A DNA stretch of 36,573 nucleotides from a virus (IMGVR_UViG_2728369393_000013), one strand, 5' to 3'. Counted from the first letter of the stretch, positions 2,063-35,020 are shown. The notes: generated by a model from the sequence alone, not told the origin. Program-made: numbers and translations.

Positions 2063-2097
2063 TCGAACAATGGCGACAACAATTTCCCATTGAAGCG

Positions 2098-4802: not shown

Positions 4803-4807
4803 GGGAT

Positions 4808-8391: not shown

Positions 8392-8818
8392 ACCGGACTC
8401 CTCCTGCGATCCCTTCTGATACTGTCATCAGCATTACGTCATCCTCCGTCATGTCCGCCACATCCGGGGAAGTAGGGATAACTTCATTCCCGTCCGGGCC
8501 AAAGCGGACACCTCCGCCAAGCCCTGCCGCTTTCTGCATCAGCACATCATCTTCAGGCTCTTCGTCAGCCTCGCGCCGGTTCAGCAAACTGAAATCCAGC
8601 GGATGCATATCCGGATCGCTGAAAAACAGGCTGAGCACGGTGTACGTCAGCCCGGAAAAGTGCATATCCAGCAGAACATCATGAAAATAATGGGTACTGT
8701 AAAAGCGGTGCCAGTCGGCATACTCCGTGGATGACATCCCGGCAAGCATGGCACGCCAGTCGGGTCGCCCCATCTCACGCGCCAGTTTCAGGGCAAAACT
8801 CAGCTCACCGTCGAACAC
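8384..8818 (-). CDS. T: Tail assembly chaperone T region (expressed as G-T fusion by -1 frameshift)
   Basis: ORF in -1 frame overlapping 3' end of G; slippery GGGAAAG present at overlap. Confidence 0.7.
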   Translation of the reverse strand: MFDGELSFALKLAREMGRPDWRAMLAGMSSTEYADWHRFYSTHYFHDVLLDMHFSGLTYTVLSLFFSDPDMHPLDFSLLNRREADEEPEDDVLMQKAAGLGGGVRFGPDGNEVIPTSPDVADMTEDDVMLMTVSEGIAGGVRYG

Positions 8819-9222
8819 TTTCCCGCAGAAACAGGCTCTGCAGGCCCGGCGTCCTCTGCCTGTTCAGGGGCATCATTCACCACAAACTCATACATACCGG
8901 ACAGCCGGTACACCACGTTTTCAGCATGAGAAATTGCCTCTGTGGGCCAGGTGGTAAGCACTTCCTGCTCAATCTGTTTAACGGCTTCATTCATGGAAGG
9001 CTGCTTTGTCTTCTGCGGATGGTTATGCCACAGGGACATAGCCACCACAAAAGCACCGGTTCTGATGGCGTCTTCCACAGTAAACTTCCGGTTGCTGTCT
9101 GACTCCGCCTGTTCTGCCTGCCGTTTCATCAGGGCGAGATGCTCAATACGCTGCAGGGCTGACAGTTCAGAAAGCGTGACGGTCACGCCGTTATGTTCAA
9201 ATGATTCGGTTTTCAGGAACAT
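8800..9222 (-). CDS. G: Lambda gpG-like tail assembly chaperone (140 aa)
   Basis: MFLKTESFEHNGVTVTLSELSALQRIEHLALMKRQ...; position between V and H; overlap with T. Confidence 0.8.
   Translation of the reverse strand: MFLKTESFEHNGVTVTLSELSALQRIEHLALMKRQAEQAESDSNRKFTVEDAIRTGAFVVAMSLWHNHPQKTKQPSMNEAVKQIEQEVLTTWPTEAISHAENVVYRLSGMYEFVVNDAPEQAEDAGPAEPVSAGKCSTVS
8818..8824 (-). promoter_or_regulatory. Conserved G GGA AAG slippery heptamer for G to G-T programmed -1 frameshift
   Basis: Plus-strand CTTTCCC at 8818-8824 equals minus-strand GGGAAAG at the G/T overlap. Confidence 0.65.
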
Positions 9223-9237
9223 CGCTGACTCTCCGGA

Positions 9238-9978
9238 TTAACTGTCGGTGACAGTGATTTCTGCAACCGCAGCAAGTTCACCATTACCGGATACAACCGG
9301 AATGTTGACCTTACCTGCAGCAACGCCTTTCACGGTGATGGTCATACCACTGACCGACACGGTGGCTTTTGTTTTATCCGCTGACACCGCACGGAAGCTC
9401 TTGTCAGTTGCGCCCTCCGGCTGGAATGCCACGGTCAGCGTGGTGCTCTGCCCTTTCACCACCGAGGAGCTGGCAGGCGTCACGGTCATACCGGTTGCCG
9501 CCGTCACCGTACTGCGATCTTCTGCCATTGACGGACGGCCCACATTGGTGATCTTCACCGTACGGGTGATCACTTCCTTCGCCGTCACCGCCTTACCGAT
9601 ACTGCTGACCCAGCCACGGAACACATCGACCGTGCCGTTCGGGAAGCGGATTTTATAGGCACGGGTATCACCTTCATTAAACCACACCAGCAGCGCCTGC
9701 TGCCCCTGCTCTCCGGGCATCCACGCCAGCGTGAAGCTGGTATCTCCGGCGGATTTTTGCCCCTGTCCGGTCGCGGTCCAGTCTGCATCTTCATCATCGA
9801 GATAACTGTCGTCATAGGACTCAGCGGTCAGTTCGCCGGGCGTCAGGTCTTTAACTTTAGCCAGACGCGACCAGTCAACGTCTGAAAGCGGGTTCGCATA
9901 AGGGTCACCGTTCCCCTGATAAACCCACAGTGTGGTCCCGGCACCTTTCACCGGCATTACAGGATTTGGTACAGGCAT
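9238..9978 (-). CDS. V: Lambda gpV-like major tail tube protein (246 aa from MPVPNP start)
   Basis: [22 protein letters not shown]..., C-terminal Ig-like region; start chosen at ATG 9978 preceded by GAGG, 11 nt after U stop. Confidence 0.85.
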
Positions 9979-9985
9979 ATCGTCC

Positions 9986-10381
9986 TCACATTTCATAGGT
10001 AATGACATAAGTCAGATCGGCAGCACTCCACAGGCCCGCATCATCGTCGCGCCGGTAGTCATAGCCGCTGGCCACCATACTGGTGATCAAATCTGACAGT
10101 GCAGGGATATCGCTCATCACCGGATAAATCCGGGACTCCATCCACGCATCCAGCTCTGAATCCGGCACCTGAGCAGGCAGGAAAACTTCGATATGCAGCT
10201 CCGCCTGCCAGGTATCGCTGTCCAGCTCTTCGCCCGTGTATTCAGCGCCGGTGAGATAAACGGCAACTGCCGGAAAATCCGCCTCATCAAAAACAGCGGG
10301 GCGACCATCAAAAAACGTCGCCCCGGTGTCATGCTTCTCCAGTGCATCCAGTACGGCTGCACGGAGTTCAGTATGTTTCAT
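9986..10381 (-). CDS. U: Lambda gpU-like tail terminator protein (131 aa)
   Basis: [48 protein letters not shown]...; synteny. Confidence 0.85.
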
Positions 10382-10955
10382 CGCTTTATTACCATCCTCA
10401 GTTGATGCTGCAGCGCATAGCCCAGCTCTTTCGGAAGACGCTCACGCCGTATCCGCTCAATATTCTGTTTAAACGCCGTGGTCAGCGGCACCGCCATCGG
10501 GATTTTCACCACATCAATGGGGTAACGGTTTTTCCCGGCCACACGCTGCATGACATGCCAGCGGCCATTTTTCAGTTGCTGAATAAACGCGCCGGGAATA
10601 CGACGGTTTCCCACCACAAGCACGCTGCCGCCACCTTTCAGGGCTGAACGCTGCCCTTTTTACGACGCCTGCGTCGGGACAGGACAACCCGCGCGTTACC
10701 CAGCCTGATTACGGGCAAATCCCCCCGGTTAATTTTGATTCTGGCCTGCGGATTTTTGACCGTGGCCCTTTTCAGCCTGGCCCTTTCCTTTACCAGTTTC
10801 CGGTGTACCTTTGTCTCACGGGCAACCTGTGACGCCGACTGCGATATCGCGGATGAAGCAACGCGGTTAATGGCCATTGCGGAGGCACCGGGCACCGCCG
10901 TTTTGCTGATACGGCTGAGGTTTTCAACGGCCTGCTCAAGACCCTGTATGGCCAT
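10378..10955 (-). pseudogene. Z: Lambda gpZ-like tail completion gene, frameshifted (A5 instead of A6 near 10655)
   Basis: ORF 10638-10955 (MAIQGLEQAVENLSRISK...RRRRRKKG) and ORF 10378-10623 (VVGNRRIPGAFIQQLKNGRWHV...) are the two halves in different frames. Confidence 0.8.
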
Positions 10956-10966
10956 ACATCCCCCTT

Positions 10967-11320
10967 TCAGCGGCGACGGTTAACGGCAGGCGGTACGCCC
11001 CGTCCAAGCCAGAGATGACAACTTCCGCCATCATCCGGCGAAACCCGATCTACCCAGAAATTTTCCTCACCGATGGTCAGCGTGTCTCCACGCCGCAGCT
11101 GCCGCACCTCATCAGTCCGGACAAACAGGGACGGGCTGGAGCCTTCAACGCGCACGCCCTGTCCGGCATAGCTGATATTTTCAGGGTCATCAAAAACACC
11201 ACGTATCACCGCACCTGACTGCTCACCGGATGTCATGGTGGCTGACGTTCCCATGTACCCGCGTATCGTTTCATCGGCGCGGGCAATGGCAGCATCGAAC
11301 AGGTTATCGAAATCAGCCAC
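10967..11320 (-). CDS. FII: Lambda gpFII-like head-tail joining protein (117 aa)
   Basis: MADFDNLFDAAIARADETIRGYMGTSA...; synteny. Confidence 0.85.
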   Translation of the reverse strand: MADFDNLFDAAIARADETIRGYMGTSATMTSGEQSGAVIRGVFDDPENISYAGQGVRVEGSSPSLFVRTDEVRQLRRGDTLTIGEENFWVDRVSPDDGGSCHLWLGRGVPPAVNRRR

Positions 11321-11331
11321 AGCGCCTCCCG

Positions 11332-11716
11332 TTATTGCATTCTGGCCAGGCCGCGCTCTGTCATTTCGGCTGCCACACCGGCAGAGACACGAAACGCCGT
11401 TCCCGGCAGCACAAATGCCACAGGTTCATCCCGCGTGACGTGAAGTGCATCAGTATGCAGCTTCACCAGTGCCACGACCGTGACCAGTTCAGACGTATCC
11501 AGAATCACGGTATCCGGCTGCGCTGATCCCACCTCATTTTCATGTCCGGTCAGCACATTTTCCCGGCTGAGAGGGGTGTCCTGACCGGCAGTTTCATCCG
11601 TGTCATCAAGCTCCTCTTCCAGCTCTGCCACACGGAGCGCCAGTTCTTCTTTCGTCCCCGTCAGGCTGACATCACGGTTCAGTTGTTCACCCAGCGAGCG
11701 GAGACGGGCAATCAGT

Positions 11717-11730
<14 letters not shown>
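11332..11730 (-). CDS. FI: Lambda gpFI-like DNA packaging protein (132 aa from MTKDELIARL start)
   Basis: Acidic protein MTKDELIARLRSLGEQLNRDVSLTGTKEELALRVAELEEELDD...; listed ORF has a spurious N-terminal extension across the intergenic hairpin. Confidence 0.8.
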
Positions 11731-14321
<2,591 letters not shown>

Positions 14322-14347
<26 letters not shown>

Positions 14348-14670
14348 TCAGCAACCCCGGTATCAGTTCATCCAGTGCGGCTGCTTTGTTCATGGCTTTG
14401 ATGATATCCCGTTTCAGGAAATCAACATGTCGGTTTTCCAGTTCCGGAAAACGCCGCTGCACCGACAGGGGGATCCCGTCGAGAATACTGGCAATTTCAC
14501 CTGCGATCCGCGACAGCACGAAAGTACAGAATGCGGTTTCCACCACTTCAGCGGAGTCTCTGGCATTCTTCAGCTCCTGTGCGTCGGCCTGCGCACGCGT
14601 AAGTCGATGGCGTTCGTACTCAATAGTCCCTGGCTGGAGATCTGTCTCGCTGTCCTGCCTCAGTTCTTCA
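14322..14670 (-). pseudogene. Nu1: Terminase small subunit Nu1, C-terminal part, separated from its N-terminus by IS66-family insertion
   Basis: ...EELRQDSETDLQPGTIEYERHRLTRAQADAQELKNARD... continues the frame interrupted at 17203. Confidence 0.8.
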
Positions 14671-14755
14671 GTAAGCGTAAACTGACCGCCGTATGTAGCC
14701 ATCAGACGAGAATTGGTAACTTAGACGCCCATCTGATATAGACGGACATCTAAGT

Positions 14756-15181
14756 ATGGAATTACAGGACTGGCGAAAAGAACCTCGTAAAAACTATTCG
14801 AATGAATTCAAACTTCGTATGGTGGAACTGGCATCACAACCTGGAGCTTGTGTTGCACAGATTGCACGTGAAAATGGCGTCAATGATAATGTTATTTTCA
14901 AATGGCTCAGGCTCTGGCAGAACGAAGGGCGTGTTTCGCGGCGTCTTCCGGTAACGACCTCTTCTGACACTGGCGTTGAATTATTACCTGTAGAAATAAC
15001 GCCGGATGAGCAGAAAGAACCTGTGGCGGCCATTGCGCCGTCTTTATCCACTTCCACTCAGACCAGAGTCAGTGCCAGTTCCTGCAAGGTGGAATTCCGT
15101 CACGGTAACATGACGCTGGAAAATCCATCGCCAGAGCTGCTCACGGTGTTGATCCGTGAACTGACCGGGAGGGGAAGATGA
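14756..15181 (+). CDS. IS66-family accessory protein Orf1 (TnpA-like), 141 aa
   Basis: First ORF of IS66-type operon, overlaps next ORF by ATGA. Confidence 0.75.
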   Translation: MELQDWRKEPRKNYSNEFKLRMVELASQPGACVAQIARENGVNDNVIFKWLRLWQNEGRVSRRLPVTTSSDTGVELLPVEITPDEQKEPVAAIAPSLSTSTQTRVSASSCKVEFRHGNMTLENPSPELLTVLIRELTGRGR

Positions 15182-15528
15182 TCTCACTCCCATCAGGTAC
15201 CCGTATCTGGCTCGTTGCCGGCGTTACCGATATGCGTAAATCCTTCAACGGACTGGGAGAACAGGTACAACATGTGCTGAATGATAATCCCTTCTCCGGT
15301 CACCTGTTTATCTTCCGTGGCCGACGGGGTGACACCGTCAAAATTCTTTGGGCTGATGCTGATGGTCTGTGCCTGTTCACCAAACGCCTGGAGGAAGGCC
15401 AGTTTATCTGGCCTGCGGTACGTGACGGCAAGGTATCCATTACCCGCTCGCAACTGGCAATGCTCCTCGATAAGCTGGACTGGCGTCAGCCAAAAACATC
15501 CAGCCGTAACTCACTGACAATGTTGTAA
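15178..15528 (+). CDS. IS66-family Orf2 (TnpB-like), 116 aa
   Basis: Conserved IS66 Orf2 sequence (ISLPSGTRIWLVAGVTDMRKSFNGL...). Confidence 0.8.
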   Translation: MISLPSGTRIWLVAGVTDMRKSFNGLGEQVQHVLNDNPFSGHLFIFRGRRGDTVKILWADADGLCLFTKRLEEGQFIWPAVRDGKVSITRSQLAMLLDKLDWRQPKTSSRNSLTML

Positions 15529-15558
15529 AAAACTCCTGACCGCATTATAAAAACGGTC

Positions 15559-17172
15559 ATGAGTCAGAAATACCTCATTCGCATCGCAGAGCTGGAAAGA
15601 TTGCTCTCTGAGCAGGCTGAAGCCCTCCGTCAGAAAGACCAGCAACTGAGTCTGGTTGAAGAGACGGAAGCCTTCCTGCGCTCTGCACTGACACGTGCCG
15701 AAGAAAAGATCGAAGAAGATGAACGGGAAATAGAACATCTGCGGGCTCAGATAGAAAAACTGCGCCGGATGCTGTTCGGTACCCGTTCTGAAAAACTGCG
15801 TCGTGAAGTTGAACTGGCTGAGGCTCTGCTGAAACAACGTGAACAGGACAGCGATCGTTACAGTGGGCGGGAAGACGATCCTCAGGTTCCCCGCCAGTTG
15901 CGACAGTCGCGCCATCGTCGTCCGTTACCGGCACACCTTCCCCGAGAAATACACCGCCTGGAGCCAGAAGAAAGCTGTTGCCCGGAGTGTGGCGGTGAGC
16001 TGGATTATCTGGGGGAAGTCAGCGCTGAACAGCTGGAACTGGTGAGCAGTGCCCTGAAAGTGATCCGCACAGAACGGGTAAAAAAAGCCTGTACAAAATG
16101 TGACTGTATTGTTGAAGCACCGGCGCCGTCCCGCCCGATAGAGCGTGGTATCGCGGGCCCCGGATTACTTGCCCGCGTGTTAACGGGAAAATACTGCGAA
16201 CATCTGCCACTGTATCGTCAGAGTGAAATCTTTGCCCGCCAGGGTGTCGAACTGAGCCGGGCCTTACTCTCCAACTGGGTTGACGCGTGCTGCCAGTTAA
16301 TGACACCGGTGAATGATGCCCTGTACCGTTATGTAATGAACACCCGCAAGGTTCACACTGATGACACACCGGTAAAGGTACTGGCACCGGGTCAGAAAAA
16401 GGCGAAAACAGGGCGTATCTGGACGTATGTCCGGGATGATCGCAATGTGGGTTCGTCATCTCCTCCAGCGGTCTGGTTCGCGTACTCGCCGAACCGGCAG
16501 GGGAAACACCCGGAGCAACACCTCCGCCCCTTCCGGGGTATCCTGCAGGCGGATGCGTTCACAGGTTACGACAGGTTGTTCAGTGCAGAACGTGAAGGTG
16601 GTGCACTGACAGAAGTTGCGTGCTGGGCCCATGCCCGGCGAAAAATCCACGATGTATACATCAGCAGCAAAAGTGCGACGGCAGAAGAAGCCCTGAAGCG
16701 AATCAGTGAACTGTACGCCATCGAGGATGAAATACGGGGATTACCGGAGTCAGAGCGTCTTGCCGTCAGGCAGCAGCGAAGCAAAGTGTTACTGACGTCG
16801 CTGCATGAATGGATGGTGGAGAAGAATGGTACGCTGTCGAAAAAATCCAGACTGGGCGAAGCGTTCAGCTATGTACTGAATCAGTGGGATGCCCTCTGTT
16901 ATTACAGTGATGACGGTCTGGCGGAGGCGGATAATAATGCTGCGGAAAGAGCGCTTCGTGCAGTCTGTCTCGGAAAGAAAAAGTTTATGTTCTTTGGCAG
17001 CGATCACGGCGGCGAGCGTGGAGCACTGTTGTACGGGCTGATCGGCACCTGCCGTCTGAACGGTATCGATCCGGAAGCGTATCTGCGCCATATCCTGAGC
17101 GTACTGCCGGAATGGCCTTCCAACCGAGTTGATGAACTCCTGCCATGGAACGTAGTACTCACCAATAAATAA
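15559..17172 (+). CDS. IS66-family transposase Orf3 (TnpC), 537 aa
   Basis: N-terminal coiled coil, CxxC...CxxC zinc motif (CPECGG...CTKCDC), DDE-type core; stop 30 bp before right IR. Confidence 0.85.
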   Translation: MSQKYLIRIAELERLLSEQAEALRQKDQQLSLVEETEAFLRSALTRAEEKIEEDEREIEHLRAQIEKLRRMLFGTRSEKLRREVELAEALLKQREQDSDRYSGREDDPQVPRQLRQSRHRRPLPAHLPREIHRLEPEESCCPECGGELDYLGEVSAEQLELVSSALKVIRTERVKKACTKCDCIVEAPAPSRPIERGIAGPGLLARVLTGKYCEHLPLYRQSEIFARQGVELSRALLSNWVDACCQLMTPVNDALYRYVMNTRKVHTDDTPVKVLAPGQKKAKTGRIWTYVRDDRNVGSSSPPAVWFAYSPNRQGKHPEQHLRPFRGILQADAFTGYDRLFSAEREGGALTEVACWAHARRKIHDVYISSKSATAEEALKRISELYAIEDEIRGLPESERLAVRQQRSKVLLTSLHEWMVEKNGTLSKKSRLGEAFSYVLNQWDALCYYSDDGLAEADNNAAERALRAVCLGKKKFMFFGSDHGGERGALLYGLIGTCRLNGIDPEAYLRHILSVLPEWPSNRVDELLPWNVVLTNK

Positions 17173-17202
17173 GCGTCAATACGGTGCTCCGTTGACGCTT
17201 AC

Positions 17203-17407
17203 GTTCTTCAACTTCCCGGCGCAGCTTTTCGTTCTCAATTTCAGCATCCCTTTCGGCATACCATTTTATGGCGGCGGCAGAGTCATAAAGTACCTCATTA
17301 CCCTTGCCACCACCCCGCAGAACGGGCATTCCCTGCTCCTGCCAGTTCTGAATGGTACGGATACTCGCGCCGAAAATGTCAGCCAGCTGCTTTTTGTTGA
17401 CTTCCAT
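17203..17407 (-). pseudogene. Nu1: Terminase small subunit Nu1, N-terminal part (winged-helix DNA-binding domain) up to IS66 junction
   Basis: MEVNKKQLADIFGASIRTIQNWQEQGMPVLRGGGKGNEVLYDSAA...EKLRREVEE then reads into the IS. Confidence 0.8.
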
Positions 17408-17584
17408 TGTTCATTCCACGGACAAAAACAGAGAAAGGAAACGACAGAGGCCAAAAAGCCCGTTTTCAGCACCTGTCGTTTCCTTTCTTTTCAGGGGGTG
17501 TTTTAAATAAAAACATTAGGTTACGGCGAAGAAGAACGGAAACGCCTTAAACCGGAAAATTTTCATAAATAGTGAAAAACCGCG

Positions 17585-19390: not shown

Positions 19391-19590
19391 TTCACTTTCT
19401 TAAATCTAACGACAGACGGCTAACATTTAAGTATTGTGAAATATTATCAAATGCAATCATCATTGATTTACAAAAGATACATTTTGCCCCGAAAGGATTC
19501 CTGTCAGAAACATCAAAAGATGATGTTCTATACTGAGAACCATGGCAACACGGGCATCTAAAGTGAATATGGTTTGTAATATTTTCTACC

Positions 19591-19803
19591 TCAAAGTGCC
19601 ACAACATGAACAGCCGCGGGGCCTTTAGGTCCGTTCTCAATACCAAATTCGACTTCCTGATTCTCAGTTAACGTTTTGAAATCGTTGCTCTGAATAGCTG
19701 AGAAATGGACAAACACATCTTTGCTACCATCTTTCGGCGTGATGAAACCAAAACCTTTTTCAGGGTTAAACCATTTCACTAAACCAGTCATTTTGTTAGA
19801 CAT
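19591..19803 (-). CDS. cspI: Cold shock protein, CspA family (70 aa)
   Basis: [38 protein letters not shown]... canonical CSD with RNP motifs. Confidence 0.9.
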
Positions 19804-20166
19804 CATTATTACCTTTTGAAGAAGTTAGCCCTTGGGCAGAATGGTCCGAAAAAAAATATCAGAGAGAAAAACCAACAAGGAAATCTCAAGAGGTACAAAT
19901 AATAAAATTATAACAATGACTGCTTCAGATAATTTTGTAACAAACCAGAACACCATTAACGCATGATTAACCAACCATAGCAAGGATTACTTTTGTAAAG
20001 AAAAACACACGAATGAAACAATAGCTTTATTTATTAATAAAACGTGTCATTCTGTCTAATGACCTTTTATCTTACCCTTAAGATTTCAAGGATTTTGACT
20101 CATGGAAGAGTCCTTTTTATTTAAATTTCACATTCAGCGCTAAAAATAATCCGATTTAATATTAAT

Positions 20167-21194
<1,028 letters not shown>

Positions 21195-22760: not shown

Positions 22761-23039
22761 TATTGTGGTGCTTTTTGTGGGAGTCATCCACTTACGCACT
22801 TTGTTTTGCTATGCTAGCAGTTAGCTTCTGCTGTAAAACTATTCATGCAGCAAACCTGCACTTCACCACAATGGTTAGCATACTTTTCCTGATTAAGTTA
22901 TTGCCAAATATGCTGGCCATTGTTTCATGTATTGGATCTCCTTACTATTTATTAAAGAGATCCAATATTCACCACTCTGTCTGTATCTCCACTCAGGCAT
23001 CAGCCTTCTTCGTTATCGTATACAGACAAACTATTAATT

Positions 23040-23255
23040 TTAATCAGTAATTATGACATTTGCTGCTGCAGGACCTTTAGCACCACTCTCTACAGAGAAG
23101 GTAACCTTTTGACCTTCAAATAAGGTTCGAAAATTATCATTCTGAATCGCAGAAAAATGCACAAACACATCTTTACTACCATCAACAGGAGAAATAAAGC
23201 CAAAACCTTTATCAGCGTTAAACCATTTTACTAAACCAGTCATTTTATTTGACAT
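23040..23255 (-). CDS. cspB: Cold shock protein CspB-like (71 aa)
   Basis: [53 protein letters not shown]... Confidence 0.9.
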
Positions 23256-23555
23256 TCTACATTCCTTAACTTGAGCCTTTCGGCATAAATGGCTTGTATA
23301 ACAGAAACGACTTCGTACTTAATTGGAGAGACTCAAAGAAGGAATAAGTGAATAACACCTGAAATGAGAACTGCTTTAGTAAACTACTTCGTATATCGTC
23401 TGTTCTTCAAACCGACGCAATCATTAACGCATAGTTGAACATATGAAGCAATGTTTATTTTAGACATCCAGCCATCTTCAACCCCATCAAAAAACTATAG
23501 CTTTCTTCAGGAACGTGTGTATAGTGCGCCAAGTTATCAGTATTAAGGAATTTTT

Positions 23556-26649: not shown

Positions 26650-27645
26650 TTACGCCAGTACGCCTATTGCCAGCGCACGATCGATAAAACGAAATATCAG
26701 CTCCAGCTGGGAGCCATAATTCTCTTCAAATGCCACGGTATTCGCATGCAGCTCGTCGTGATGCTTTCTGCACAAAGGCAACACAAAAAGGTCATGCGCT
26801 TTTGTACCCATTCCACCCTGACCGTGGCCTATCAGGTGGTGGGGATCATCAGCGGGCTTTCCACAACATGCACACGGCTGTGTCTTAACCCAGCGCGTGT
26901 ACTTTTCATTAACCCAGCGGCGACGTTTTGGGCGTAACATAAAAGACTCCGGCGACTCCGGATCCACTTTCAGCGCCAGCACCTTTTTCGCTTTATCCTG
27001 GATGATGCTGGTGGCAGGAACCGAAGGCACAAGGTCACTTTCCCGGGTGACAGACGGCACAACAGGCTTCGGTAATCTCAGTGCCTTACGGGCTGCACTT
27101 TCCGGTAAGGCATCCGCCAGGTCATTACGAACCAGCCACCAGCACAGTTCCGGCATTGTCACTACGTGACTGTCATCAAAACCGAGATCCCGACGCACGA
27201 CAGATAACACCCAGTGGGCACAGTTATCCGTTGCCATTGATTCCAGCCGTTCCGTGAACTGATCACGCAACTGGTTATCGCAGTGCCAACACAGACGGAT
27301 TGCGCCCGGCGCGTGTCGCATTGTGGTCATGTTCTCGCTGTGCCAGTCGGAATGAGGCCACTGACAGCCCTTTTCACGAAGTAACCAGCTTTCAAGACAT
27401 TCCACGCCACCAGCACGACGGATCACTGCCTCATTGCGGAACACGGCCCGAACGGCAGGATCATCCGCCAGCGGTTGTGATGCCGCCGGAACGGCACCAC
27501 TGGCGAAAGATGAATAACGTTCCGGCTCAGGCTCCAGCAGGACACGCCCCTGCATAAACAGGGGCATCAGCTCTGAACCTGGCCTGAACAATACGATCCC
27601 CATACGCGGGGCAATTTCAGGGGTCAGTAGTGCTCTCACGGTCAC
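26650..27645 (-). CDS. ydfU: DUF968-family protein (YdfU-like), C-terminal Cys/His-rich HNH-like region
   Basis: C-terminal CACCGKPADDPHHLIGHGQGGMGTKAHDLFVLPLCRKHHDELH; adjacent to Q as ydfU is in Qin. Confidence 0.6.
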   Translation of the reverse strand: MTVRALLTPEIAPRMGIVLFRPGSELMPLFMQGRVLLEPEPERYSSFASGAVPAASQPLADDPAVRAVFRNEAVIRRAGGVECLESWLLREKGCQWPHSDWHSENMTTMRHAPGAIRLCWHCDNQLRDQFTERLESMATDNCAHWVLSVVRRDLGFDDSHVVTMPELCWWLVRNDLADALPESAARKALRLPKPVVPSVTRESDLVPSVPATSIIQDKAKKVLALKVDPESPESFMLRPKRRRWVNEKYTRWVKTQPCACCGKPADDPHHLIGHGQGGMGTKAHDLFVLPLCRKHHDELHANTVAFEENYGSQLELIFRFIDRALAIGVLA

Positions 27646-27646
27646 C

Positions 27647-28522
27647 TCAATGAACGGTATCGAGCAGCTTTAACAGCTCAGGGAATCGGGATTCGAAGAA
27701 ATGCGGCTGCGTCTCGCGCGGATTTGCAGGACTGGTGATGTTCTTGCCGAACATGCAGCCTTTCGCCGTCAGCGACCAGAATTTTTTGATGTTGTTAATC
27801 GCGGTACGGCTGTATCGTTCGCGTTGTTCAACGATCCCCAGCTTCACCATCTGGTGATATGCCTGATTAGCCGTCAGGCGGATACCATACTGTTTCAGCA
27901 GTGCACTCAGCGACAGCGTGGGGCGACTTGAGCCATCAGGCGCGTCAGCAGGAGCATCAATGGCATAGCGCGGTGCCAGATTCGGTAAGCCAACAGCCTC
28001 CTGAAGCTTCTGACAGGCTCCAAGCACTGATGAGTTAGACAGGTTTAATTCCCGGCGCATAAAGTCCAGCAGGATCACGCCAGCCTGCATCTTGTCAGCA
28101 GCCTGCCCGGATAATTTTTCCGGTGTGCTGGTTACCATATCGAAAGTACGGATCACCTTCAGATGGAATGACGGGCTGATCCACATTGCATAGGCATACA
28201 CCAGTTCCTTGCAGACATACGTTCCTCCATTCCGCCCTTCTATTTTACTTACTGGTTTACTACCCAAATTTTGGGTAGTTTCATTGAATGAACCGACACC
28301 CAAATTTTGGGTATCGATCAATTCCTGAACCAGCTCAGTAATCTGTTGGCTGGAAAGAAACTTTCCCGGCTCCTTAGTTCTGGCATTTGCACCAGATGCA
28401 ACAGCAGCCCGATGCAGATCGTTCAGGCTGTAACGCCCATAAGCATCACGACGAACTTCAATACCATCAATGACCATCAGATTATTCATACTTCGTTTCT
28501 CCTCTTGATCAGGCGGCTGCAC
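27647..28522 (-). CDS. KilA-N domain protein, antirepressor-like (291 aa)
   Basis: N-terminal MVIDGIEVRRDAYGRYSLNDLHRAAV typical of KilA-N/APSES domain; internal TQNLG repeat. Confidence 0.55.
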   Translation of the reverse strand: MQPPDQEEKRSMNNLMVIDGIEVRRDAYGRYSLNDLHRAAVASGANARTKEPGKFLSSQQITELVQELIDTQNLGVGSFNETTQNLGSKPVSKIEGRNGGTYVCKELVYAYAMWISPSFHLKVIRTFDMVTSTPEKLSGQAADKMQAGVILLDFMRRELNLSNSSVLGACQKLQEAVGLPNLAPRYAIDAPADAPDGSSRPTLSLSALLKQYGIRLTANQAYHQMVKLGIVEQRERYSRTAINNIKKFWSLTAKGCMFGKNITSPANPRETQPHFFESRFPELLKLLDTVH

Positions 28523-28898
28523 CCGCCGTTTTCTCGTACTTACTGATAGTGATCTCGACCTTCCCTTCCGGGATAACCGGTCCCCACTCCACCAGCATTC
28601 TTTTCACCTGACTGTCGTCTTCCCACACACCCGCGTGGGTCAGGGCGTCAAACAGCGCCTTGTTATAGTTGTCCAGATCGCGGATCCGGTTATCCGGAGG
28701 AAACAACACGATCTCCACTGAAGCAGGTGCCGACGTTGGTTTCGGCAGACGACGTAACTGCTCAACTATTGCTGCACACGCCGCGCTCTGGAATTTGCGC
28801 CCCGCCGCGCTTATCAGGCTCTTACCTGCAAACGCCCCTTTGTTGGGGTGTCGCCAGTACGTGTTCACGCTGGGCGGAAAAGGCAGGATCAGCTTCAT
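28509..28898 (-). CDS. rusA: RusA-family Holliday junction resolvase (129 aa)
   Basis: Conserved DLDNYNKALFDALTHAGVWEDDSQV block and size. Confidence 0.8.
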   Translation of the reverse strand: MKLILPFPPSVNTYWRHPNKGAFAGKSLISAAGRKFQSAACAAIVEQLRRLPKPTSAPASVEIVLFPPDNRIRDLDNYNKALFDALTHAGVWEDDSQVKRMLVEWGPVIPEGKVEITISKYEKTAGAAA

Positions 28899-29581
28899 GC
28901 CACTATCTCCCTGACCAGCCGTTCTGCCTGCTGGCGAACCTGCGCCAGAAACGCCTCACCACATGCCTCAAGTTCATCGCGCCCGATGTAGCTGATTGCC
29001 GGTCCCTTCCAGGTCTTGTCAAAAACAGCAATAGCACCAGCGAAGAAAGCGCCTGTCGGCACCTGCTTCTCGTCTTTCGGGATAAACCAGGCAGGCACTT
29101 CAAAACCAATACGCCCGCGAATAAAAGCAATATGATCTGCATCTTCCGGCCACCACACTTCGCTGGTGGCAGCTTTGATCAGGAAAACATAGCGTCCGCC
29201 CTTATCACGCATGGCACTGGCATGCTTCATGATGTAACGCATGCCGGTGATGTATTGCCCCTCATGCTGACTGGCGCGGCTGTATGGGGGATTACCAAAG
29301 GCAGCACCTTTAAGCTCCGCAAGACGTTCTGACCAGTCATGCGCCAGCGCGTTGTCTTCCGCCGTGTAATACGCGGTACATTTGGCGTTATCACCGTCAG
29401 TAAACAGATCCAGGACAAACGGGCCAAACAGGGTGTTAATTCCCCAGAAAATGTTATCCGGCGTGCGCCACTGATCGCCCACTTCCTTCAGTTCATGGGC
29501 TGGTTTGTTCCGCAGCTCCACCAGCTCCTGGCAATATTTATTACTCATTAAGCCCCCACGTAATTCCCTGACAGATACCAC
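28895..29581 (-). CDS. Phage-type N6-adenine DNA methyltransferase (228 aa)
   Basis: NPPY catalytic motif (FGNPPYSR) and overall phage Dam-like architecture. Confidence 0.7.
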   Translation of the reverse strand: MVSVRELRGGLMSNKYCQELVELRNKPAHELKEVGDQWRTPDNIFWGINTLFGPFVLDLFTDGDNAKCTAYYTAEDNALAHDWSERLAELKGAAFGNPPYSRASQHEGQYITGMRYIMKHASAMRDKGGRYVFLIKAATSEVWWPEDADHIAFIRGRIGFEVPAWFIPKDEKQVPTGAFFAGAIAVFDKTWKGPAISYIGRDELEACGEAFLAQVRQQAERLVREIVA

Positions 29582-30042
29582 TCATCACCCGATACAGCGC
29601 GCTTGCTGCTTTTCCGTAAGCACCGCTCACGACGTGCCAGAAAATTGTTTCGTTCTGGCTGGGAGTGGCTTTCACGGAATGCCGCCATCCACACGGTTGC
29701 AGCACGACGGTATAAGCCCCTGGACTCCAGTTCTTCAGCCTGGCGGGTCAGGCACAAAATCACCCGGGGATCGTTAGTGCCGACATAGAAATTGCGCACA
29801 GGTCTGGTTTCACGAACTGGTTGTGGTTCCGGCTCCTGCGCTCTCTCAGTCAGGCGCGGGAAATGTCTGCGTGTATCTCCTTCACAACGGTGAGCCACAC
29901 GCCCACTCTGACGTAACTTGCTTGCAGACTGCAGAACGCGCTGCCGTGAGTAACCTGCAAAAGCATCCGCAATGTCTCCGGAAGTACACCCCGGATGGGC
30001 TTCAATGAATTTCTGAACTTCATTCAAAAGACTCATGATCAC
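29548..30042 (-). CDS. Putative PerC-family (Pch-like) transcriptional regulator with N-terminal extension (164 aa)
   Basis: AEELESRGLYRRAATVWMAAF resembles the PerC core motif as recalled; not verified by search. Confidence 0.4.
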   Translation of the reverse strand: MIMSLLNEVQKFIEAHPGCTSGDIADAFAGYSRQRVLQSASKLRQSGRVAHRCEGDTRRHFPRLTERAQEPEPQPVRETRPVRNFYVGTNDPRVILCLTRQAEELESRGLYRRAATVWMAAFRESHSQPERNNFLARRERCLRKSSKRAVSGDEWYLSGNYVGA

Positions 30043-30857
30043 CCCCTGAATCCTGCCGGGATCTGGCTGTAGTCCACGTTGTCGTAACTGGCTTTGAAGT
30101 ACGGGTCCTCGCGTCTGGCTGCAGATACCGCAGGAACTTCCCAGGATTCTTCGAAATGACGATCCGGACCAAAGAACGTGACAGCCTGTTTCACAAATTG
30201 TGTGCCGCTGTTACCCATCGCAGATACCCAGCCCGCGTAGCGTTTCACACCTTCCAGCATGGTTTCGGGTTTTACCCCCTCATTCAAACGGGCTTTCCAG
30301 GCTTTGAAGGCTGCAGATTTTGAATTGCCACCAGCACGTTTGGGATATGCCAGCCATGCCTGCTCAAACTCCGGAGAGTATTCCGGTCGGTTTGAACGAA
30401 CTCGCACAGACTCATCAGCAGATGCACCAACAGCTATTGGTTCTTTGACTGGTTCTTTGACTGGTTCAAAAGAGTGACTGGTTCTGGGTGAATCTCCTGC
30501 ACTACCCCCTGGTGCAACTCCTGCACTACCTGGTGAATTTGCTGCACCAGATAGTGAATTATTTGCACTACCCCCTAGTGAATCTCCTTCACCATCCAGA
30601 TGAAGGAGATAGATATTACTTGAGTTACCTTTTTCACCTTTCCGGGTGACTTTTTTTACCAGCCCGGACTCACAAAGGGCCGCAATATGATTCATCACAG
30701 AACGTTTGCTAATCTCGCACTGGTCAGCAATATGCTGGTAGCTGGGCCAGCACTCACCCTGATCGCTGGCATTATCAGCCAGCTTGATCAGAACCAGTTT
30801 TCGCAATGGATTACCCACTCGAATTTTCATCGCTTTAACCATCAGCTCCATACTCAT
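30039..30857 (-). CDS. Putative replication initiator (N-terminal HTH domain, Gly/Ser-rich linker encoded by iterons)
   Basis: N-terminal winged-helix-like region (LVLIKLADNASDQGECWPSYQHIADQC...); central protein repeats coincide with direct DNA repeats; position downstream of cro/cII-like genes. Confidence 0.5.
   Translation of the reverse strand: MSMELMVKAMKIRVGNPLRKLVLIKLADNASDQGECWPSYQHIADQCEISKRSVMNHIAALCESGLVKKVTRKGEKGNSSNIYLLHLDGEGDSLGGSANNSLSGAANSPGSAGVAPGGSAGDSPRTSHSFEPVKEPVKEPIAVGASADESVRVRSNRPEYSPEFEQAWLAYPKRAGGNSKSAAFKAWKARLNEGVKPETMLEGVKRYAGWVSAMGNSGTQFVKQAVTFFGPDRHFEESWEVPAVSAARREDPYFKASYDNVDYSQIPAGFRG
30437..30600. repeat. Iteron-like direct repeats inside the replication gene (candidate phage origin)
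   Basis: GGTTCTTTGACT tandem x2.5 at 30437-30467 and five imperfect ~21-bp units GTGAATCTCCTGCACTACC-like at 30485-30595, followed by AT-rich stretch 30600-30640. Confidence 0.55.
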
Positions 30858-31090
30858 GCTGCACCTCCGAGATGCTTCATGTTTTTTCCGGAGCGAAAGG
30901 CTATAAGCGGCATACTGACGCGGTAATTACGGCCCAGCGGTTCACAAACCACCTTCTGACATTCACGGTCAACCAGGCTAACACGTAGAACATGCCCTGC
31001 AGGCGTGGTGTACCACTGACCAACGGTAGGAATTGATGTTTTTTTACGCTGAAGCAAACGGCAAATATTGAGGATCAACGGATTAAGCAT
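30854..31090 (-). CDS. Hypothetical protein (78 aa), translationally coupled to neighbours
   Basis: ORF overlapping stop of upstream and start of downstream gene by 4-8 nt. Confidence 0.4.
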   Translation of the reverse strand: MLNPLILNICRLLQRKKTSIPTVGQWYTTPAGHVLRVSLVDRECQKVVCEPLGRNYRVSMPLIAFRSGKNMKHLGGAA

Positions 31091-31919
31091 GACGATGCCC
31101 TCCGCTGATATTCAGGAAACGGTGAATATGAAGATTAGCCTTATCCGCCAGACGAATACGTTCAGCCTGCAAGTTAAGAAGGGTTTCTACCAGAACCTGA
31201 TGCGCCTGCGGATCCGAAAGAGTTACCTTGCGCAGAGCACGTAGTGCAGTTGTTACATAGCTGAGTTTATGTAAGTCTTCATCATTCAGACGAGTGAGGG
31301 CTGGGACAGTAGCCATGATGGCAGCCTCCGTATGCAATGGATAACTTCCACCACCGGAAACGCCAATTTCGCTGGTGGTGAACTGAGCAGGGTTGGCGTA
31401 ACCGGCGCATACGGAAACCGGCGCACCTTTCGGTGCCCCCACCCAGCCCACCATAATTTGGGTATAGCTGAGTTGTAGCAACAAAAAAGACGCTAACGCG
31501 CCAATTGTCGCCGTATGCAATTCCAGGACGCCAATCCCGGCACCCGCTTTATAAGGTGCCTGAACAGTGTAACGTCCCGGAATGGCAGAATCAATGTGCT
31601 GGTGGTCCTTCACACTCAACAAAATCACGCCTGAATTTCCACAAAGGGCTAAAGCACTCATGCGGGTAGTCTTTGCGAAGATAGATAACGCGCTGTGTTT
31701 CTGGCTCCCAACGAATAACATGAACATAAAGTCCTCTTCCGTCACGAAACCAGCGGTTAAGTTCCTGCACAACTCGCCCCCCACAGTCAGGTAAAGTTCT
31801 CTGTGGTTACTTACAGCCAGGAGATTTGGTAATCTGCATTCATGCCGTAACAACAGGTGTTCAGCGACGCTGACCACCAGCTGTTGCGACAAACGGTTAT
31901 TTGCCGTTAAACTGTTCAT
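31083..31919 (-). CDS. Hypothetical protein (278 aa) in replication module
   Basis: Long ORF in operon orientation; no motif recognised by eye (no Walker A). Confidence 0.45.
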   Translation of the reverse strand: MNSLTANNRLSQQLVVSVAEHLLLRHECRLPNLLAVSNHRELYLTVGGELCRNLTAGFVTEEDFMFMLFVGSQKHSALSIFAKTTRMSALALCGNSGVILLSVKDHQHIDSAIPGRYTVQAPYKAGAGIGVLELHTATIGALASFLLLQLSYTQIMVGWVGAPKGAPVSVCAGYANPAQFTTSEIGVSGGGSYPLHTEAAIMATVPALTRLNDEDLHKLSYVTTALRALRKVTLSDPQAHQVLVETLLNLQAERIRLADKANLHIHRFLNISGGHRHA

Positions 31920-32427
31920 GCGTTAGTTTCTCCACAGACACAAAACGCCACGACGCCCGGAGCTGCACACTCGCGGCGTCACTCTTTTCTGGAGCGCAAA
32001 AGATTTTGTAGACCAGTGCTGCATGCTCCTGGAGCTTCGAAATTGACAGATACAACTCATCATTAATTGCTGTCTGCTCGTGTGGCTCTACTACCCCATC
32101 TTCGATTGCCGAACGAATCTGCTTTGAGTAACTCCCGATCTGTTCGATGACTTCCAGCAGGCGCTGGTTTATATCGGCGTTCTCTACTTCCTCAATTTCA
32201 GGAAGCGATACAAACACCCCACCAGCAGACTGTGCGACAGCATCCGCAATGTAGTGAGTGCCAGCCGCGCGCTGTAAAATCATTGCCCATCCCAGCGGGA
32301 AAATCTGATCGCCATCTGCACGAAGGCGGTTGAATAAAGCGTTCTCTGTTACATCCAGCCACTCAGCAGCTTCAGCGTAACCCCCGGCAACGCCGCGATA
32401 GTTTTTCTGACAGCTTTCACGTACCAC
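31897..32427 (-). CDS. Putative YdaT/CII-like regulatory protein (176 aa)
   Basis: Position immediately downstream of cro-like gene; family assignment from memory only. Confidence 0.35.
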   Translation of the reverse strand: MVRESCQKNYRGVAGGYAEAAEWLDVTENALFNRLRADGDQIFPLGWAMILQRAAGTHYIADAVAQSAGGVFVSLPEIEEVENADINQRLLEVIEQIGSYSKQIRSAIEDGVVEPHEQTAINDELYLSISKLQEHAALVYKIFCAPEKSDAASVQLRASWRFVSVEKLTHEQFNGK

Positions 32428-32508
32428 TCAGGCTGTTTTTCTACTTTCCAGTGATGCTTACCCACGGTTAGCCTCATCGTTCTGTGGTTAAAAATTGAAG
32501 GTGTTCTG

Positions 32509-32709
32509 TTAATCTTTCGGATAGATATCCGGTCTTAAGTCAGATTTCGTAATTGCACCTGACGTGCATTGCTCAAGTTTTTTAGCCAGCACAAAACTGG
32601 CTTTTTTATAACCATTGAAAACCAGCCGTAAGTAGCCTGGTGTTGAGCCAACTTTTCCGGCCAACTCGCCCTGCTGTTCTTTGGTTAAAGAGTCCCAATA
32701 CGCTTTCAT
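32509..32709 (-). CDS. Cro/YdaS-like HTH protein (66 aa)
   Basis: MKAYWDSLTKEQQGELAGKVGSTPGYLRLVFNGYKKASFVLAKKLEQ has HTH; GGAGG SD 8 nt upstream; divergent from cI. Confidence 0.6.
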   Translation of the reverse strand: MKAYWDSLTKEQQGELAGKVGSTPGYLRLVFNGYKKASFVLAKKLEQCTSGAITKSDLRPDIYPKD

Positions 32710-32799
32710 ACAATATGTACCTCCGGTATACATATTACATGATTGAGATGAATCTTCAAGATACTTGTACCTTATCGGTACAAAGGTTTTAATTTCTTT
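32710..32799. promoter_or_regulatory. Divergent cI/cro promoter-operator region with perfect palindrome TTGTACC-TTATC-GGTACAA (32765-32783)
   Basis: Palindrome seen directly; TTGAAG-16-TAATAT on minus strand toward cro; TTGTAC-18-TTTAAT on plus strand ending at cI ATG. Confidence 0.55.
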
Positions 32800-33474
32800 A
32801 TGAAAACAGTCCATGACATCCGGCGGTCTAACGCCAGAAAACTGAGAGATGGTGTTGGCGGGAATTCTTCCTTTGCCACCATGATTGATCGCGAGCCAAC
32901 CCAGACCAGCAGGTTTATGGGAGATGGTGCTACTAAAAATATCGGTGACAGCATGGCACGACACATCGAAAAATGTTTCGACCTGCCTGTCGGATGGCTC
33001 GATCAAGAACACCAGACAACGAACATCACAAAAAAACCTGATGTTTCAATCACTAATAAACAAATCACATTAGTCCCTGTCATATCATGGGTACAGGCCG
33101 GAGCATGGAAAGAAGTTGGATATTCTGAGGTTGATTTGAGCACAGCAGAAACGTATCCCTGCCCTGTACCCTGTGGGGAAATGACTTATATCTTGCGGGT
33201 GATAGGTGATTCAATGATTGATGAGTACCGCCCGGGAGACATGATTTTTGTCGATCCTGAAGTACCTGCCTGCCACGGTGACGACGTTATTGCATTGATG
33301 CACGATACAGGTGAAACCACCTTCAAAAGGTTGATAGAAGATGGGACACAGCGTTATCTCAAAGCGTTAAACCCAAACTGGCCTGAGCCTTACATTAAGA
33401 TCAACGGTAATTGCTCTATAATTGGTACTGTGATTTTCTCAGGAAAACCAAGAAGATACAAAATCAAAGCCTAA
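32800..33474 (+). CDS. CI-type repressor with C-terminal S24 (LexA-like) autopeptidase domain (224 aa)
   Basis: C-terminal GDSM (Ser nucleophile) and downstream Lys; architecture like P22 C2/lambda CI. Confidence 0.8.
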   Translation: MKTVHDIRRSNARKLRDGVGGNSSFATMIDREPTQTSRFMGDGATKNIGDSMARHIEKCFDLPVGWLDQEHQTTNITKKPDVSITNKQITLVPVISWVQAGAWKEVGYSEVDLSTAETYPCPVPCGEMTYILRVIGDSMIDEYRPGDMIFVDPEVPACHGDDVIALMHDTGETTFKRLIEDGTQRYLKALNPNWPEPYIKINGNCSIIGTVIFSGKPRRYKIKA

Positions 33475-34189: not shown

Positions 34190-34477
34190 TTAATTATCCC
34201 CTCTAAGAACAGAGTCATCCAGATTAGCCGAATCCTTGTTGTTGGGGAATAACCAGGCCCACCTCGCCTGATGTGGCTAAAAGCAGGCACATAACAGCTA
34301 AGTATTTTCAACCAGAGAGAATCCTTAGCGTTGTGGTGAATGCGGCTCAGCGCACGCGGGTTAAGGTTGAGGCTGACAGTCGACCTTCTGTGGATACCCA
34401 CCCGCCTGGTGTGCAACCTTCGCCAGGCACCGGGAGGCACCCGGCACCACAACTTTATGCTGTGTGTAGTCCTGGCG

Positions 34478-34511
34478 GTACCAGTTTGTACCCTTGCTTC
34501 CGGCTGGTACC
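34478..34511. promoter_or_regulatory. Putative OL/pL operator region with three GTACC-core motifs
   Basis: GGTACC (34478-34483), TTGTACC (34486-34492), GGTACC (34506-34511) resemble half-sites of the OR palindrome. Confidence 0.4.
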
Positions 34512-34608
34512 GCTCTTTTTACAAAACAGAGAAGAGCATCACCGGACGACGGGCTCATAACCCAATCCATCCGGGCGGCTGCCACCGCAGGTGTTCTTCT
34601 CTGTTTTG
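34512..34608 (+). other. Structured leader element: boxA-like CGCTCTTTTTA followed by long imperfect stem-loop (arms 34522-34536 and 34594-34608)
   Basis: Inverted repeat CAAAACAGAGAAGAG / TTCTTCTCTGTTTTG (14 of 15 bp complementary) enclosing 57 nt with internal GC-rich pairing. Confidence 0.4.
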
Positions 34609-34657
34609 TGGAGAAACCAACCGACCTTGCAGGGTCGATATGATTAGGAGTAGCAAA

Positions 34658-35020
34658 ATGGCTAGCGAACGCAGTACCAACGTGCAGGAATTTATCGTAG
34701 AACTGGACGGCGGCGTATTTGAAACCAAACTCGGCGCAGTTCTCAGCGAAGTCGCTTCCGGTGTGATGAACACGAAAAACAAAGGTAAAGTCTCGGTCAA
34801 TCTGGACATCGAACCGTTTGATGAGAACCGTGTGAAAATCAAACACAAACTCTCATATGTTCGCCCGACTAACCGCGGGAAAATTTCCGAAGAAGACACC
34901 ACCGAAACGCCGATGTATGTCAATCGCGGTGGTCGCCTGACTATTCTGCAGGAAGACCAGGGACAGTTACTGACTCTTGCCGGTGAACCTGACGGAAAAC
35001 TCCGCGCAGCAGGTCGTTAA
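34658..35020 (+). CDS. Hypothetical early protein (120 aa), first gene of leftward operon
   Basis: AGGAG SD 7 nt upstream of ATG at 34658; longer listed ORF is an upstream extension across the leader. Confidence 0.55.
   Translation: MASERSTNVQEFIVELDGGVFETKLGAVLSEVASGVMNTKNKGKVSVNLDIEPFDENRVKIKHKLSYVRPTNRGKISEEDTTETPMYVNRGGRLTILQEDQGQLLTLAGEPDGKLRAAGR

Follow-up and report, generated by a model that had tools for sequence, protein, structure and literature searches.

The viral record IMGVR_UViG_2728369393_000013, a stretch of 36,573 nucleotides referred to here in its entirety as the window, carries three open reading frames (ORFs) of 176, 278 and 78 aa between a cro-like gene, ymfT, and the gene for a 272-aa replication initiator. 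The original prediction described these as three unrecognised proteins of a replication module, beside which no helicase loader was evident. By comparison with NZ_CP014583, which is 99.9 % identical to the window over the stretch in question and served as the reference for frames and alleles, the window is a decayed Escherichia coli lambdoid prophage, and the stretch itself forms the central part of the early-right operon in an e14/CPS-53-like lambdoid E. coli prophage. The ORFs are indeed present at the predicted positions. The best explanation of the whole, which we hold to be probable, is that the locus comprises a fragment of the regulator gene ymfL, a composite 278-aa ORF that contains an RNA switch, and an initiator module with no loader gene of its own. 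Families in public libraries cover all of these parts except the 78-aa protein and orf77, a 77-aa gene that forms the end of the 278-aa ORF. The genes concerned are as follows.

32509 to 32709, minus strand: ymfT, cro-like, with a YdaS-family helix-turn-helix (HTH) domain; a PGAP coding sequence (CDS) in the 99.9 % identical record
31916 to 32465, minus strand: ymfL, encoding a CII-like regulator of 183 aa if intact, delimited by alignment and three-frame translation
31897 to 32427, minus strand: the 176-aa ORF
31083 to 31919, minus strand: the 278-aa ORF, a mechanically called frame
30854 to 31090, minus strand: the 78-aa ORF, encoding a conserved small protein (phrog_1153, E 2e-42)
30039 to 30857, minus strand: the replication initiator, 272 aa, with an HTH_36 match

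The upstream border of the region is formed by ymfT, which has weak Pfam matches to YdaS_toxin and HTH_3. The 176-aa ORF that follows is a frameshifted fragment of a known regulator, ymfL. It matches Phage_CP76/CII (PF06892) with an E-value of 9e-13 (48.8 bits against the Pfam threshold of 26), the frame-repaired, intact allele scores 169 bits with the YmfL equivalog model NF041471 (cut-off 90), and the corresponding PHROG family, phrog_101, is CII-like. Relative to NZ_CP014583, single nucleotides have been lost from two homopolymers, C6 becoming C5 near 32380 and G3 becoming G2 near 31974; because of these two deletions the frame is not intact in the window, and ymfL is split over three frames, of which the 176-aa ORF is the middle piece. 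The deletion allele near 32380 is shared by 6 of the 1,100 records matched, and that near 31974 is absent from all 1,922 E. coli records matched. The latter represents either a mutation private to this sequence or a read error in the homopolymer, both being possible.

The 278-aa ORF begins with an ATG overlapping the ymfL stop codon (ATGA), in the same place as the start of ymfM in the e14 element of E. coli K-12. From there it runs on through a DUF4222 gene (which is read in a different frame), an IsrK-type RNA and the terminator belonging to it, a C4 antisense RNA and, last, orf77. PGAP calls only 31083-31628 (181 aa) of this ORF, as an 'ash family protein', and also annotates the DUF4222 gene; the counterpart in phage Ayreon is labelled 'immunity region'. 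The view that these ORFs lack recognisable signatures is consequently wrong both for the 176-aa ORF, with its match to Phage_CP76/CII, and for the 278-aa ORF, which has an Ash match, overlaps DUF4222 and contains matches to two Rfam families. No clear homology of the 278-aa protein to a known replication factor was found, and the ORF is explained otherwise: what it contains is an RNA cassette of the immunity type, inserted before the replication genes, and not a replication factor. Its components, with the sites named after those of P1, are listed below.

31591 to 31770, minus strand, in a different frame from the 278-aa ORF: DUF4222 gene, 59 aa, GTG start (Pfam PF13973, phrog_1343)
31566 to 31594, minus strand: candidate promoter PisrK, with -35 TTGATT (31594-31589), a 17-nt spacer and -10 TACACT (31571-31566)
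31483 to 31559, minus strand: IsrK-type RNA, equivalent to the c4-a1b1 / P4 seqA element (Rfam RF01394, 61.2 bits, gathering threshold 50)
31535-31528, minus strand: a1 in IsrK, ATTGGCGT
31520-31511, minus strand: b1 in IsrK, TTGCATACGG
31371 to 31458, minus strand: C4 antisense RNA (Rfam RF01695, 80.7 bits, gathering threshold 45, full-length over model positions 1-87)
31415-31407, minus strand: b', the loop of C4 hairpin 2, TCCGTATGC
31399-31393, minus strand: a', the 3' junction of C4, ACGCCAA
31325 to 31367, minus strand: leader of the regulated gene, holding a2 and b2
31367-31360, minus strand: a2 in the orf77 leader, ATTGGCGT
31337-31327, minus strand: b2 in the orf77 leader, TTGCATACGGA
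31083 to 31316, minus strand: orf77, 77-aa gene with its own GGAGG-ATG start (ATG at 31316)

The comparisons of these pairing sites cover eight related loci. The b' loop and a' junction of C4 are complementary to one pair of sites in IsrK and to a second pair in the leader of orf77. All 27 pairs of the C4 stems are formed in all eight loci, with eight pairs altered on both sides, whereas slid controls are only 33-46 % paired. The b' loop has eight different sequences in the eight loci, and b1 and b2 of each locus change along with it; the a' junction falls into four specificity types, each of which is matched in both target copies. Loop-target duplexes have a mean energy of -15.3 kcal/mol between cognate partners, against -7.8 kcal/mol between non-cognate ones, and the cognate partner is the best available for the leader in seven of the eight loci and for IsrK in all of them. 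The pairings of C4 with IsrK and with the orf77 leader co-vary, in other words, across the eight loci. At the window locus, b2 overlaps the Shine-Dalgarno sequence of orf77 (GGAGG, 31329-31325), and the duplex between the C4 loop and the leader (-16.7 kcal/mol, 11 bp) covers this GGAGG. A scan of the genome collection for YmfL returned 11 loci, two of them with an IsrK/C4 cassette, and phage records proved the more useful source.

The IsrK region scores 21.4 bits with the c4-a1b1 model RF03163, below the threshold of 46.7, and its 3' end is an intrinsic terminator (31502-31489, followed by T6). The candidate promoter PisrK would place the start of transcription near 31559, which is the 5' end of the Rfam IsrK match. 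The DUF4222 stop codon falls within its -35 hexamer, and both hexamers are conserved in L012 and L018, two loci in which the DNA further upstream is unrelated. A third copy of ATTGGCG, the a-type target of C4, was also observed at 31499-31505 (minus strand), where it constitutes the 5' half of the IsrK terminator stem, so that C4 pairing could influence termination, as P4 CI does.

Patterns of codon change distinguish the frames in this region. The DUF4222 product matches PF13973 with 51.1 bits (threshold 27, E 1e-13) and phrog_1343 with an E-value of 1e-36, and the column of its start codon holds GTG, ATG or TTG in different loci. In an alignment of six loci, pairwise differences in the DUF4222 frame number 145, 107 and 350 at the first, second and third codon positions, and the ratio of non-synonymous to synonymous change (pN/pS) is 0.23; over the same overlap, the 278-aa frame has a pN/pS of 1.55. 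It is the DUF4222 frame that purifying selection acts on. Further along, the Pfam family Ash (PF10554) matches residues 117-210 of the 278-aa ORF with 64 bits (gathering threshold 26, E 2e-17), and these residues correspond to nucleotides 31571-31290, coinciding with the IsrK and C4 RNAs. Differences in the Ash frame through the IsrK-C4 stretch amount to 749, 765 and 869 at the three codon positions, over 84, 86 and 90 sites respectively. The third-position excess that would mark an evolving protein domain is absent here, and the frame is kept open all the same. Hence the 'Ash' match largely reflects these RNA genes, and evolution of the 278-aa ORF as a single protein is excluded. Passage of ribosomes through the RNA in this frame seems to be selected, while the sequence of the resulting peptide is not.

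Directly after C4, a start of the form GAGG-N8-ATGGCTAC is found in all eight loci with minor variation, the version in Gifsy-1 being ATGACCAC. The ATG is a mosaic joint, beyond which the sequences of different loci are unrelated: the gene after the joint is orf77 in the window and in Hafnia phage yong2, Rha in the Citrobacter locus and in phage PhiR55_1, Ant in an Stx1 phage and AnrP in Gifsy-1. The place of orf77 is that of icd in P1 and of anrP in Gifsy-1, and by analogy with these orf77 is probably the effector regulated by C4. Its homologue in yong2 is 38 % identical, on strongly diverged DNA, and is ATGA-coupled directly to a different type of initiator. The PHROG matches of orf77 are to the C-terminal parts of phrog_4908 and phrog_3960; a homologue search returned only eight database matches, and no similarity to P1 Icd was detected. 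In the window, orf77 is the first of a series of genes joined end to end, overlapping the 78-aa gene by 8 nt, with ATGA between the 78-aa gene and the initiator and GTGA between the initiator and yfdN.

The cassette is a known kind of RNA switch. The parts, their pairing potential and its co-variation are observed in the sequences themselves; the regulation is modelled on the P1 c4-icd-ant, P4 CI/seqA and Gifsy-1 IsrK-orf45-AnrP systems. On these precedents, the C4 RNA would be processed by RNase P to a small RNA of about 77 nt and would block the ribosome-binding site of orf77 and hence its translation, and IsrK would compete with or remodel the pairing between C4 and the leader. Because orf77, the 78-aa gene, the initiator gene and yfdN overlap end to end, polarity on the replication genes is possible, and the switch may in this way limit their expression.

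The closest likeness in layout is to immI of P1/P7, in which a promoter, a1/b1, C4, a2/b2 (the last over the ribosome-binding site), a small ORF and coupled genes are also found, the annotated order in P1 being promoters, a1, b1, c4, a2, b2, icd and ant (ant1/ant2). The window differs in that orf77 is unlike Icd, in that no Ant, Rha or KilA antirepressor comes next, its place being taken by the 78-aa gene and the initiator, and in that the reading frame is kept open through the RNA; furthermore, its cassette lies within a lambdoid pR operon, whereas that of P1 is in a separate, C1-controlled operon. In P4, the replication operon is preceded by a processed small RNA (CI), with two complementary sites (seqA and seqC) upstream and downstream of it. 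CI makes transcription terminate prematurely, before the gene for a primase-helicase (alpha) is reached, while the replication gene downstream of the cassette in the window encodes an O-like initiator. P4 CI has been stated to lie within a 'Bro network' ORF with the Pfam domain Phage_ASH, and the Rfam C4 and isrK models to detect relatives of CI and seqA (PMC10111431).

In Gifsy-1, IsrK and a processed RNA of approximately 80 nt overlap orf45 (STnc1160), the translation of which is required for the coupled antirepressor gene anrP, and it is the nucleotide sequence of orf45, not its amino acid sequence, that is conserved (Hershko-Shalev et al. 2016, PMC4825925). The window shares with Gifsy-1 the tandem, equally spaced matches to IsrK and C4, the IsrK terminator and an ATG within C4 at the position of the orf45 start; this conserved ATG is at 31454 in the window. 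In Gifsy-1, however, orf45 stops at the anrP ATG, whereas in the window the frame is fused to orf77; the Gifsy-1 promoter is consensus-like, whereas the candidate in the window is a weak match; and the Gifsy-1 cassette is downstream of Q and controls an antirepressor, whereas that of the window lies between the cII-like gene and the replication genes.

Several observations weigh against this explanation in its simplest form. The candidate PisrK agrees with the consensus at 8 of 12 positions and is absent from the output of a sigma-70 promoter scan of 30800-32800, which reported no promoter; its proposal therefore derives from its conservation. In seven of the eight loci no stop codon interrupts the frame that is in phase with the orf77 ATG, and the region varies in length between 271 and 280 nt, every one of these lengths keeping the frame of that ATG. 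Likewise, the distance from the ATG inside C4 to the downstream ATG is 135, 138 or 141 nt, all multiples of three; the exception is Gifsy-1, where it is 134 nt to the anrP ATG, which the orf45 TGA overlaps. The other two frames through the RNA region contain up to five stops per locus, with a mean of about two. This conserved open frame, together with the frame-keeping lengths, implies that ribosomes probably traverse the RNA region. In addition, the first 50 codons after the ymfL ATGA are the only open frame both in the window and in the unrelated K-12 sequence, and a longer product, of 123 or even 278 aa, could conceivably be made. The 78-aa gene and the initiator gene each have a strong Shine-Dalgarno sequence of their own (GGAGG), so that C4 may control orf77 only. 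Finally, C4 and IsrK are absent from the sister replication modules in Klebsiella and Citrobacter, which argues that the cassette is an optional insert and not intrinsic to the replication unit. The direct ATGA coupling of orf77 to an initiator in yong2, on the other hand, speaks for a stronger gate.

A possible, if still tentative, interpretation that accommodates the open frame is that the IsrK-C4 cassette is a P4-like RNA gate inside the lambdoid pR operon, and that the Ash frame is open only so that ribosomes unfold the RNA. Transcripts from cro/ymfL would then encounter the IsrK terminator, followed by the C4-blocked start of orf77, and expression of orf77, the 78-aa gene, the initiator and the genes onward to Q would need relief from the antisense repression, with the open 'Ash' frame acting as a device resembling a leader peptide. 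If this were correct, the RNA switch would set a second, sequence-specific layer of immunity over replication, and the 'Ash domains' of many Rha, Ant and Ash proteins, including those in the 'Eru' replication units of Stx phages, would be footprints of RNA switches.

It appears unlikely, on the other hand, that the 278-aa ORF is one multi-domain regulator of the 'Ash family' (Bro network), translated from the ymfL-coupled ATG and with the RNA matches embedded in a true CDS. The ATGA overlap with the ymfL stop and the stretch of 50 codons open in two unrelated sequence types would fit such a protein, as would the frame being open in all relatives with only frame-preserving indels, the PHROG families of 'transcriptional regulators' that span residues 61-278, and the detectable translation of orf45 in Gifsy-1 (PMC4825925). 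It is difficult to reconcile with the excess of non-synonymous change in this frame over DUF4222 and the lack of a third-position excess in the Ash part, or with the intrinsic terminator inside the ORF. Moreover, the last 77 codons have a conserved Shine-Dalgarno-ATG in front of them, this ATG is the exact point at which the downstream domains are exchanged, and the Gifsy-1 frame ends at the downstream ATG.

Regarding the 278-aa ORF as a composite removes a false lead, since the stretch does not hold three novel replication proteins. It also bears on annotation more widely, as in the output of gene callers and in Pfam the IsrK/C4 cassette appears under the name of 'Ash family protein' or of an N-terminal 'Ash domain' of Rha or Ant, and the Stx-phage literature treats Ash as a protein domain of no known function, maybe linked to replication (PMC8951638). 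That the conservation of the region tracks RNA pairing instead of codons, with one frame still open, sharpens both the annotation and the design of experiments.

The e14 element of K-12 (ymfL - ymfM - oweE) offers a version of the locus lacking the cassette. Its ymfK, ymfT and ymfL are approximately 90 % identical to those of the window, the ATG at the ymfL stop is shared, and a DUF4222 ORF is again present in the other frame. By contrast with the window, there is no IsrK/C4 in e14, the ymfM frame stops after 112 codons, and the DUF4222 ORF is directly coupled to a truncated initiator gene, oweE.

This DUF4222 ORF, of 59 codons, is unannotated in K-12 (NC_000913, 1204001-1204180) and lies within ymfM ('cell division inhibitor', SfiC) in the other frame. 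Its start, AAGGAG-N7-TTG, is strong, and at the other end its stop codon overlaps the ATG of oweE; in the six-locus alignment, the low pN/pS value given above belongs to the DUF4222 frame and the high one to the ymfM frame. The published pBAD24-ymfM clone would hold 53 of the 59 DUF4222 codons, and the preprint describing it makes no mention of DUF4222. The filamentation phenotype ascribed to ymfM might stem from either frame. Immediately after the ymfL stop in the window (31855-31890, minus strand), a stem-loop of the form CAACAGCTGGTGGTCAGC...GCTGAACACCTGTTG is also observed, with a different stem-loop in each lineage (at the same position in L004 and L002); the folding energy of the stem-loop between ymfL and DUF4222 is not unusual relative to shuffled sequence (z from -0.6 to -1.2).

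The remaining part of the module concerns initiation of replication, for which two further features are relevant.

30488 to 30592, plus strand: five exact 15-bp iterons, GTGMAWYWNYTKCAC, at a spacing of 21-24 bp, in the linker-coding part of the initiator gene
29548 to 30042, minus strand: yfdN, 164 aa, with a PerC-family C-terminal part; its GTG overlaps the initiator stop, and it is in the position of lambda P

The predicted layout of the initiator is a winged helix (residues 1-85), a disordered linker (91-155) and a helical C-terminal domain (approximately 160-240), the last conserved and confidently modelled; a sequence search against the PDB gave no match. As in lambda O, an N-terminal DNA-binding domain and a C-terminal partner-binding domain are separated by a linker, the DNA for which holds iterons within the initiator's own gene. 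The five iterons compare with a chance expectation of 0.92 matches in the whole window even with one mismatch allowed, and they are the presumed origin, laid out like the lambda ori within gene O. The initiator would bind them through its winged helix. Tandem 12-mers, TGGTTCTTTGAC, adjoin the iterons at 30438-30485 and encode EPVKEPVKEP in the linker of the initiator; the origin may include them, for instance as an unwinding or spacer element. The difference from lambda O/P and from the sister modules is twofold, in that HTH_36 is the only N-terminal Pfam match, with Phage_rep_O (PF04492) not found, and in that there is no adjacent P gene nor any DnaC-like or DnaB-like gene.

The C-terminal domain belongs to no Pfam family and is nevertheless widespread, with 4,478 representative clusters. 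It is joined elsewhere to N-terminal domains of the HTH_36, DUF1376 (YdaU-type), Phage_rep_O or Lin1244_N types. An 'O' protein of a Stx phage has the same C-terminal domain (72 % identity), and after its gene come those for an IstB/DnaC-like ATPase and a replication protein of 466 aa. Full-length initiators that are 70-74 % identical, in prophages of Klebsiella, Raoultella and Citrobacter, are followed by DnaC-like and DnaB-like genes. In the window the initiator is followed by yfdN and then dam, an order also found in two complete phages, Ayreon (MF807953; host K-12) and PhiR55_1, the host of which is E. coli C. As the initiator family thus occurs both with and without DnaC-like and DnaB-like genes of its own, the C-terminal domain is a good candidate for the recruitment of helicase and loader, and we infer that its partners are a DnaC-type loader and a DnaB-type helicase. 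Since YfdN and Dam replace the DnaC-like and DnaB-like genes of the sister modules, the C-terminal domain of this variant presumably brings in host DnaC and DnaB, although it counts against firmness on this point that the dependence on the host proteins is deduced from gene content.

The original prediction was accurate in finding no P, DnaC-like or helicase partner gene. None of the nine ORFs scanned between 28895 and 33474 has a Pfam domain of a helicase or loader, the early region contains no Walker A motif in stop-to-stop frames of 80 aa or more, and no DnaC, DnaB or P gene is listed in the PGAP annotation of the 99.9 % identical prophage. The sole Walker A match in the whole window, at 20343, is in the lysis region, where PGAP has rzpQ (DUF2514) in the near-identical record. 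Similarly, a scan of ten otherwise unnamed or doubtfully named proteins of Ayreon detected no helicase or loader domain. This phage (L021) also encodes, at 26917-29106 beside the integrase, a 729-aa protein with a CHAT (caspase-like) domain, possibly the product of a defence or moron gene and unrelated to replication. The lack of a loader is no anomaly but normal for this replication module, which is very common among E. coli prophages. Of 5,426 complete E. coli genomes, 487 carry a near-identical stretch of 4 kb (coverage of 80 % or more), and the cluster to which the initiator belongs at 97 % identity contains 2,852 sequences.

The 78-aa protein did prove to be uncharacterised, as predicted. 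It has no Pfam or NCBIfam match, and its only strong match, phrog_1153, is a PHROG family with no assigned function; the 46 database clusters of the family are all named 'hypothetical'. The gene has its start within the end of orf77 and its TGA overlapping the initiator ATG, and its homologues in PhiR55_1 and Stx phages lie directly before initiator genes. A relationship between this family and DUF4222 was considered, in view of weak reciprocal PHROG matches, and is not supported, the profile-profile probability (0.7 %) not being significant, though the two may yet be paralogues.

That the 78-aa protein or YfdN is a new helicase-recruiting partner, acting in the stead of lambda P, is very unlikely. 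Such a role would suit the position of the 78-aa family immediately upstream of initiators with differing N-terminal domains, the presence of the DUF4222 gene in the same coupled position in e14, the overlap between the YfdN start and the initiator stop, and the lack of an assigned biochemical function for either protein. YfdN, however, has a PerC-type domain, of a family annotated as transcriptional activators, and neither protein has an ATPase motif. Furthermore, a homologue of the 78-aa protein is found in Stx phages themselves equipped with DnaC-like and DnaB-like genes, another is in the Citrobacter locus with no neighbouring initiator, and Hafnia phage yong2 has none. Scarcely any credence can be given to the proposal that a loader was lost through decay of the prophage, leaving a non-functional module, which would draw on the IS600 and ISEc23 insertions, the truncated tail, portal and terminase genes, the frameshifted ymfL and the DnaC-like and DnaB-like genes of sister modules, because the complete phages Ayreon and PhiR55_1 have the same loader-less order of initiator, YfdN and Dam, and because the stretch and the initiator cluster are as abundant as described above.

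The suggested parallel with the Rac prophage holds in part. The cro-like gene of the window is a weak match to the YdaS family, and the initiator C-terminal domain is also found on DUF1376 (YdaU-type) proteins; by contrast, no ORF in the region matches the Pfam family named after YdaT, and there is no DnaC-like gene, the type to which ydaV of Rac is usually assigned.

Some further features of the window were noted. According to the annotation of L003, the prophage is defective: over window positions 1-17500, IS600 and ISEc23 interrupt tail-fibre and terminase genes, and portal and tail genes are truncated; within the region studied here, only the ymfL frameshifts matter. An IS009 RNA match (Rfam) at 1336-1534 (minus strand) is inside an IS3-family element, and two Rfam matches to the cspA thermoregulator, at 19545-19961 and 22977-23416 (minus strand), are upstream of cold-shock genes of the prophage. 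On the leftward side of the immunity region, a mechanically called ORF of 226 aa (34340-35020, plus strand) has as its counterpart in the near-identical record two features called by PGAP, first a hypothetical pseudogene marked 'frameshifted' and then a hypothetical protein of 120 aa.

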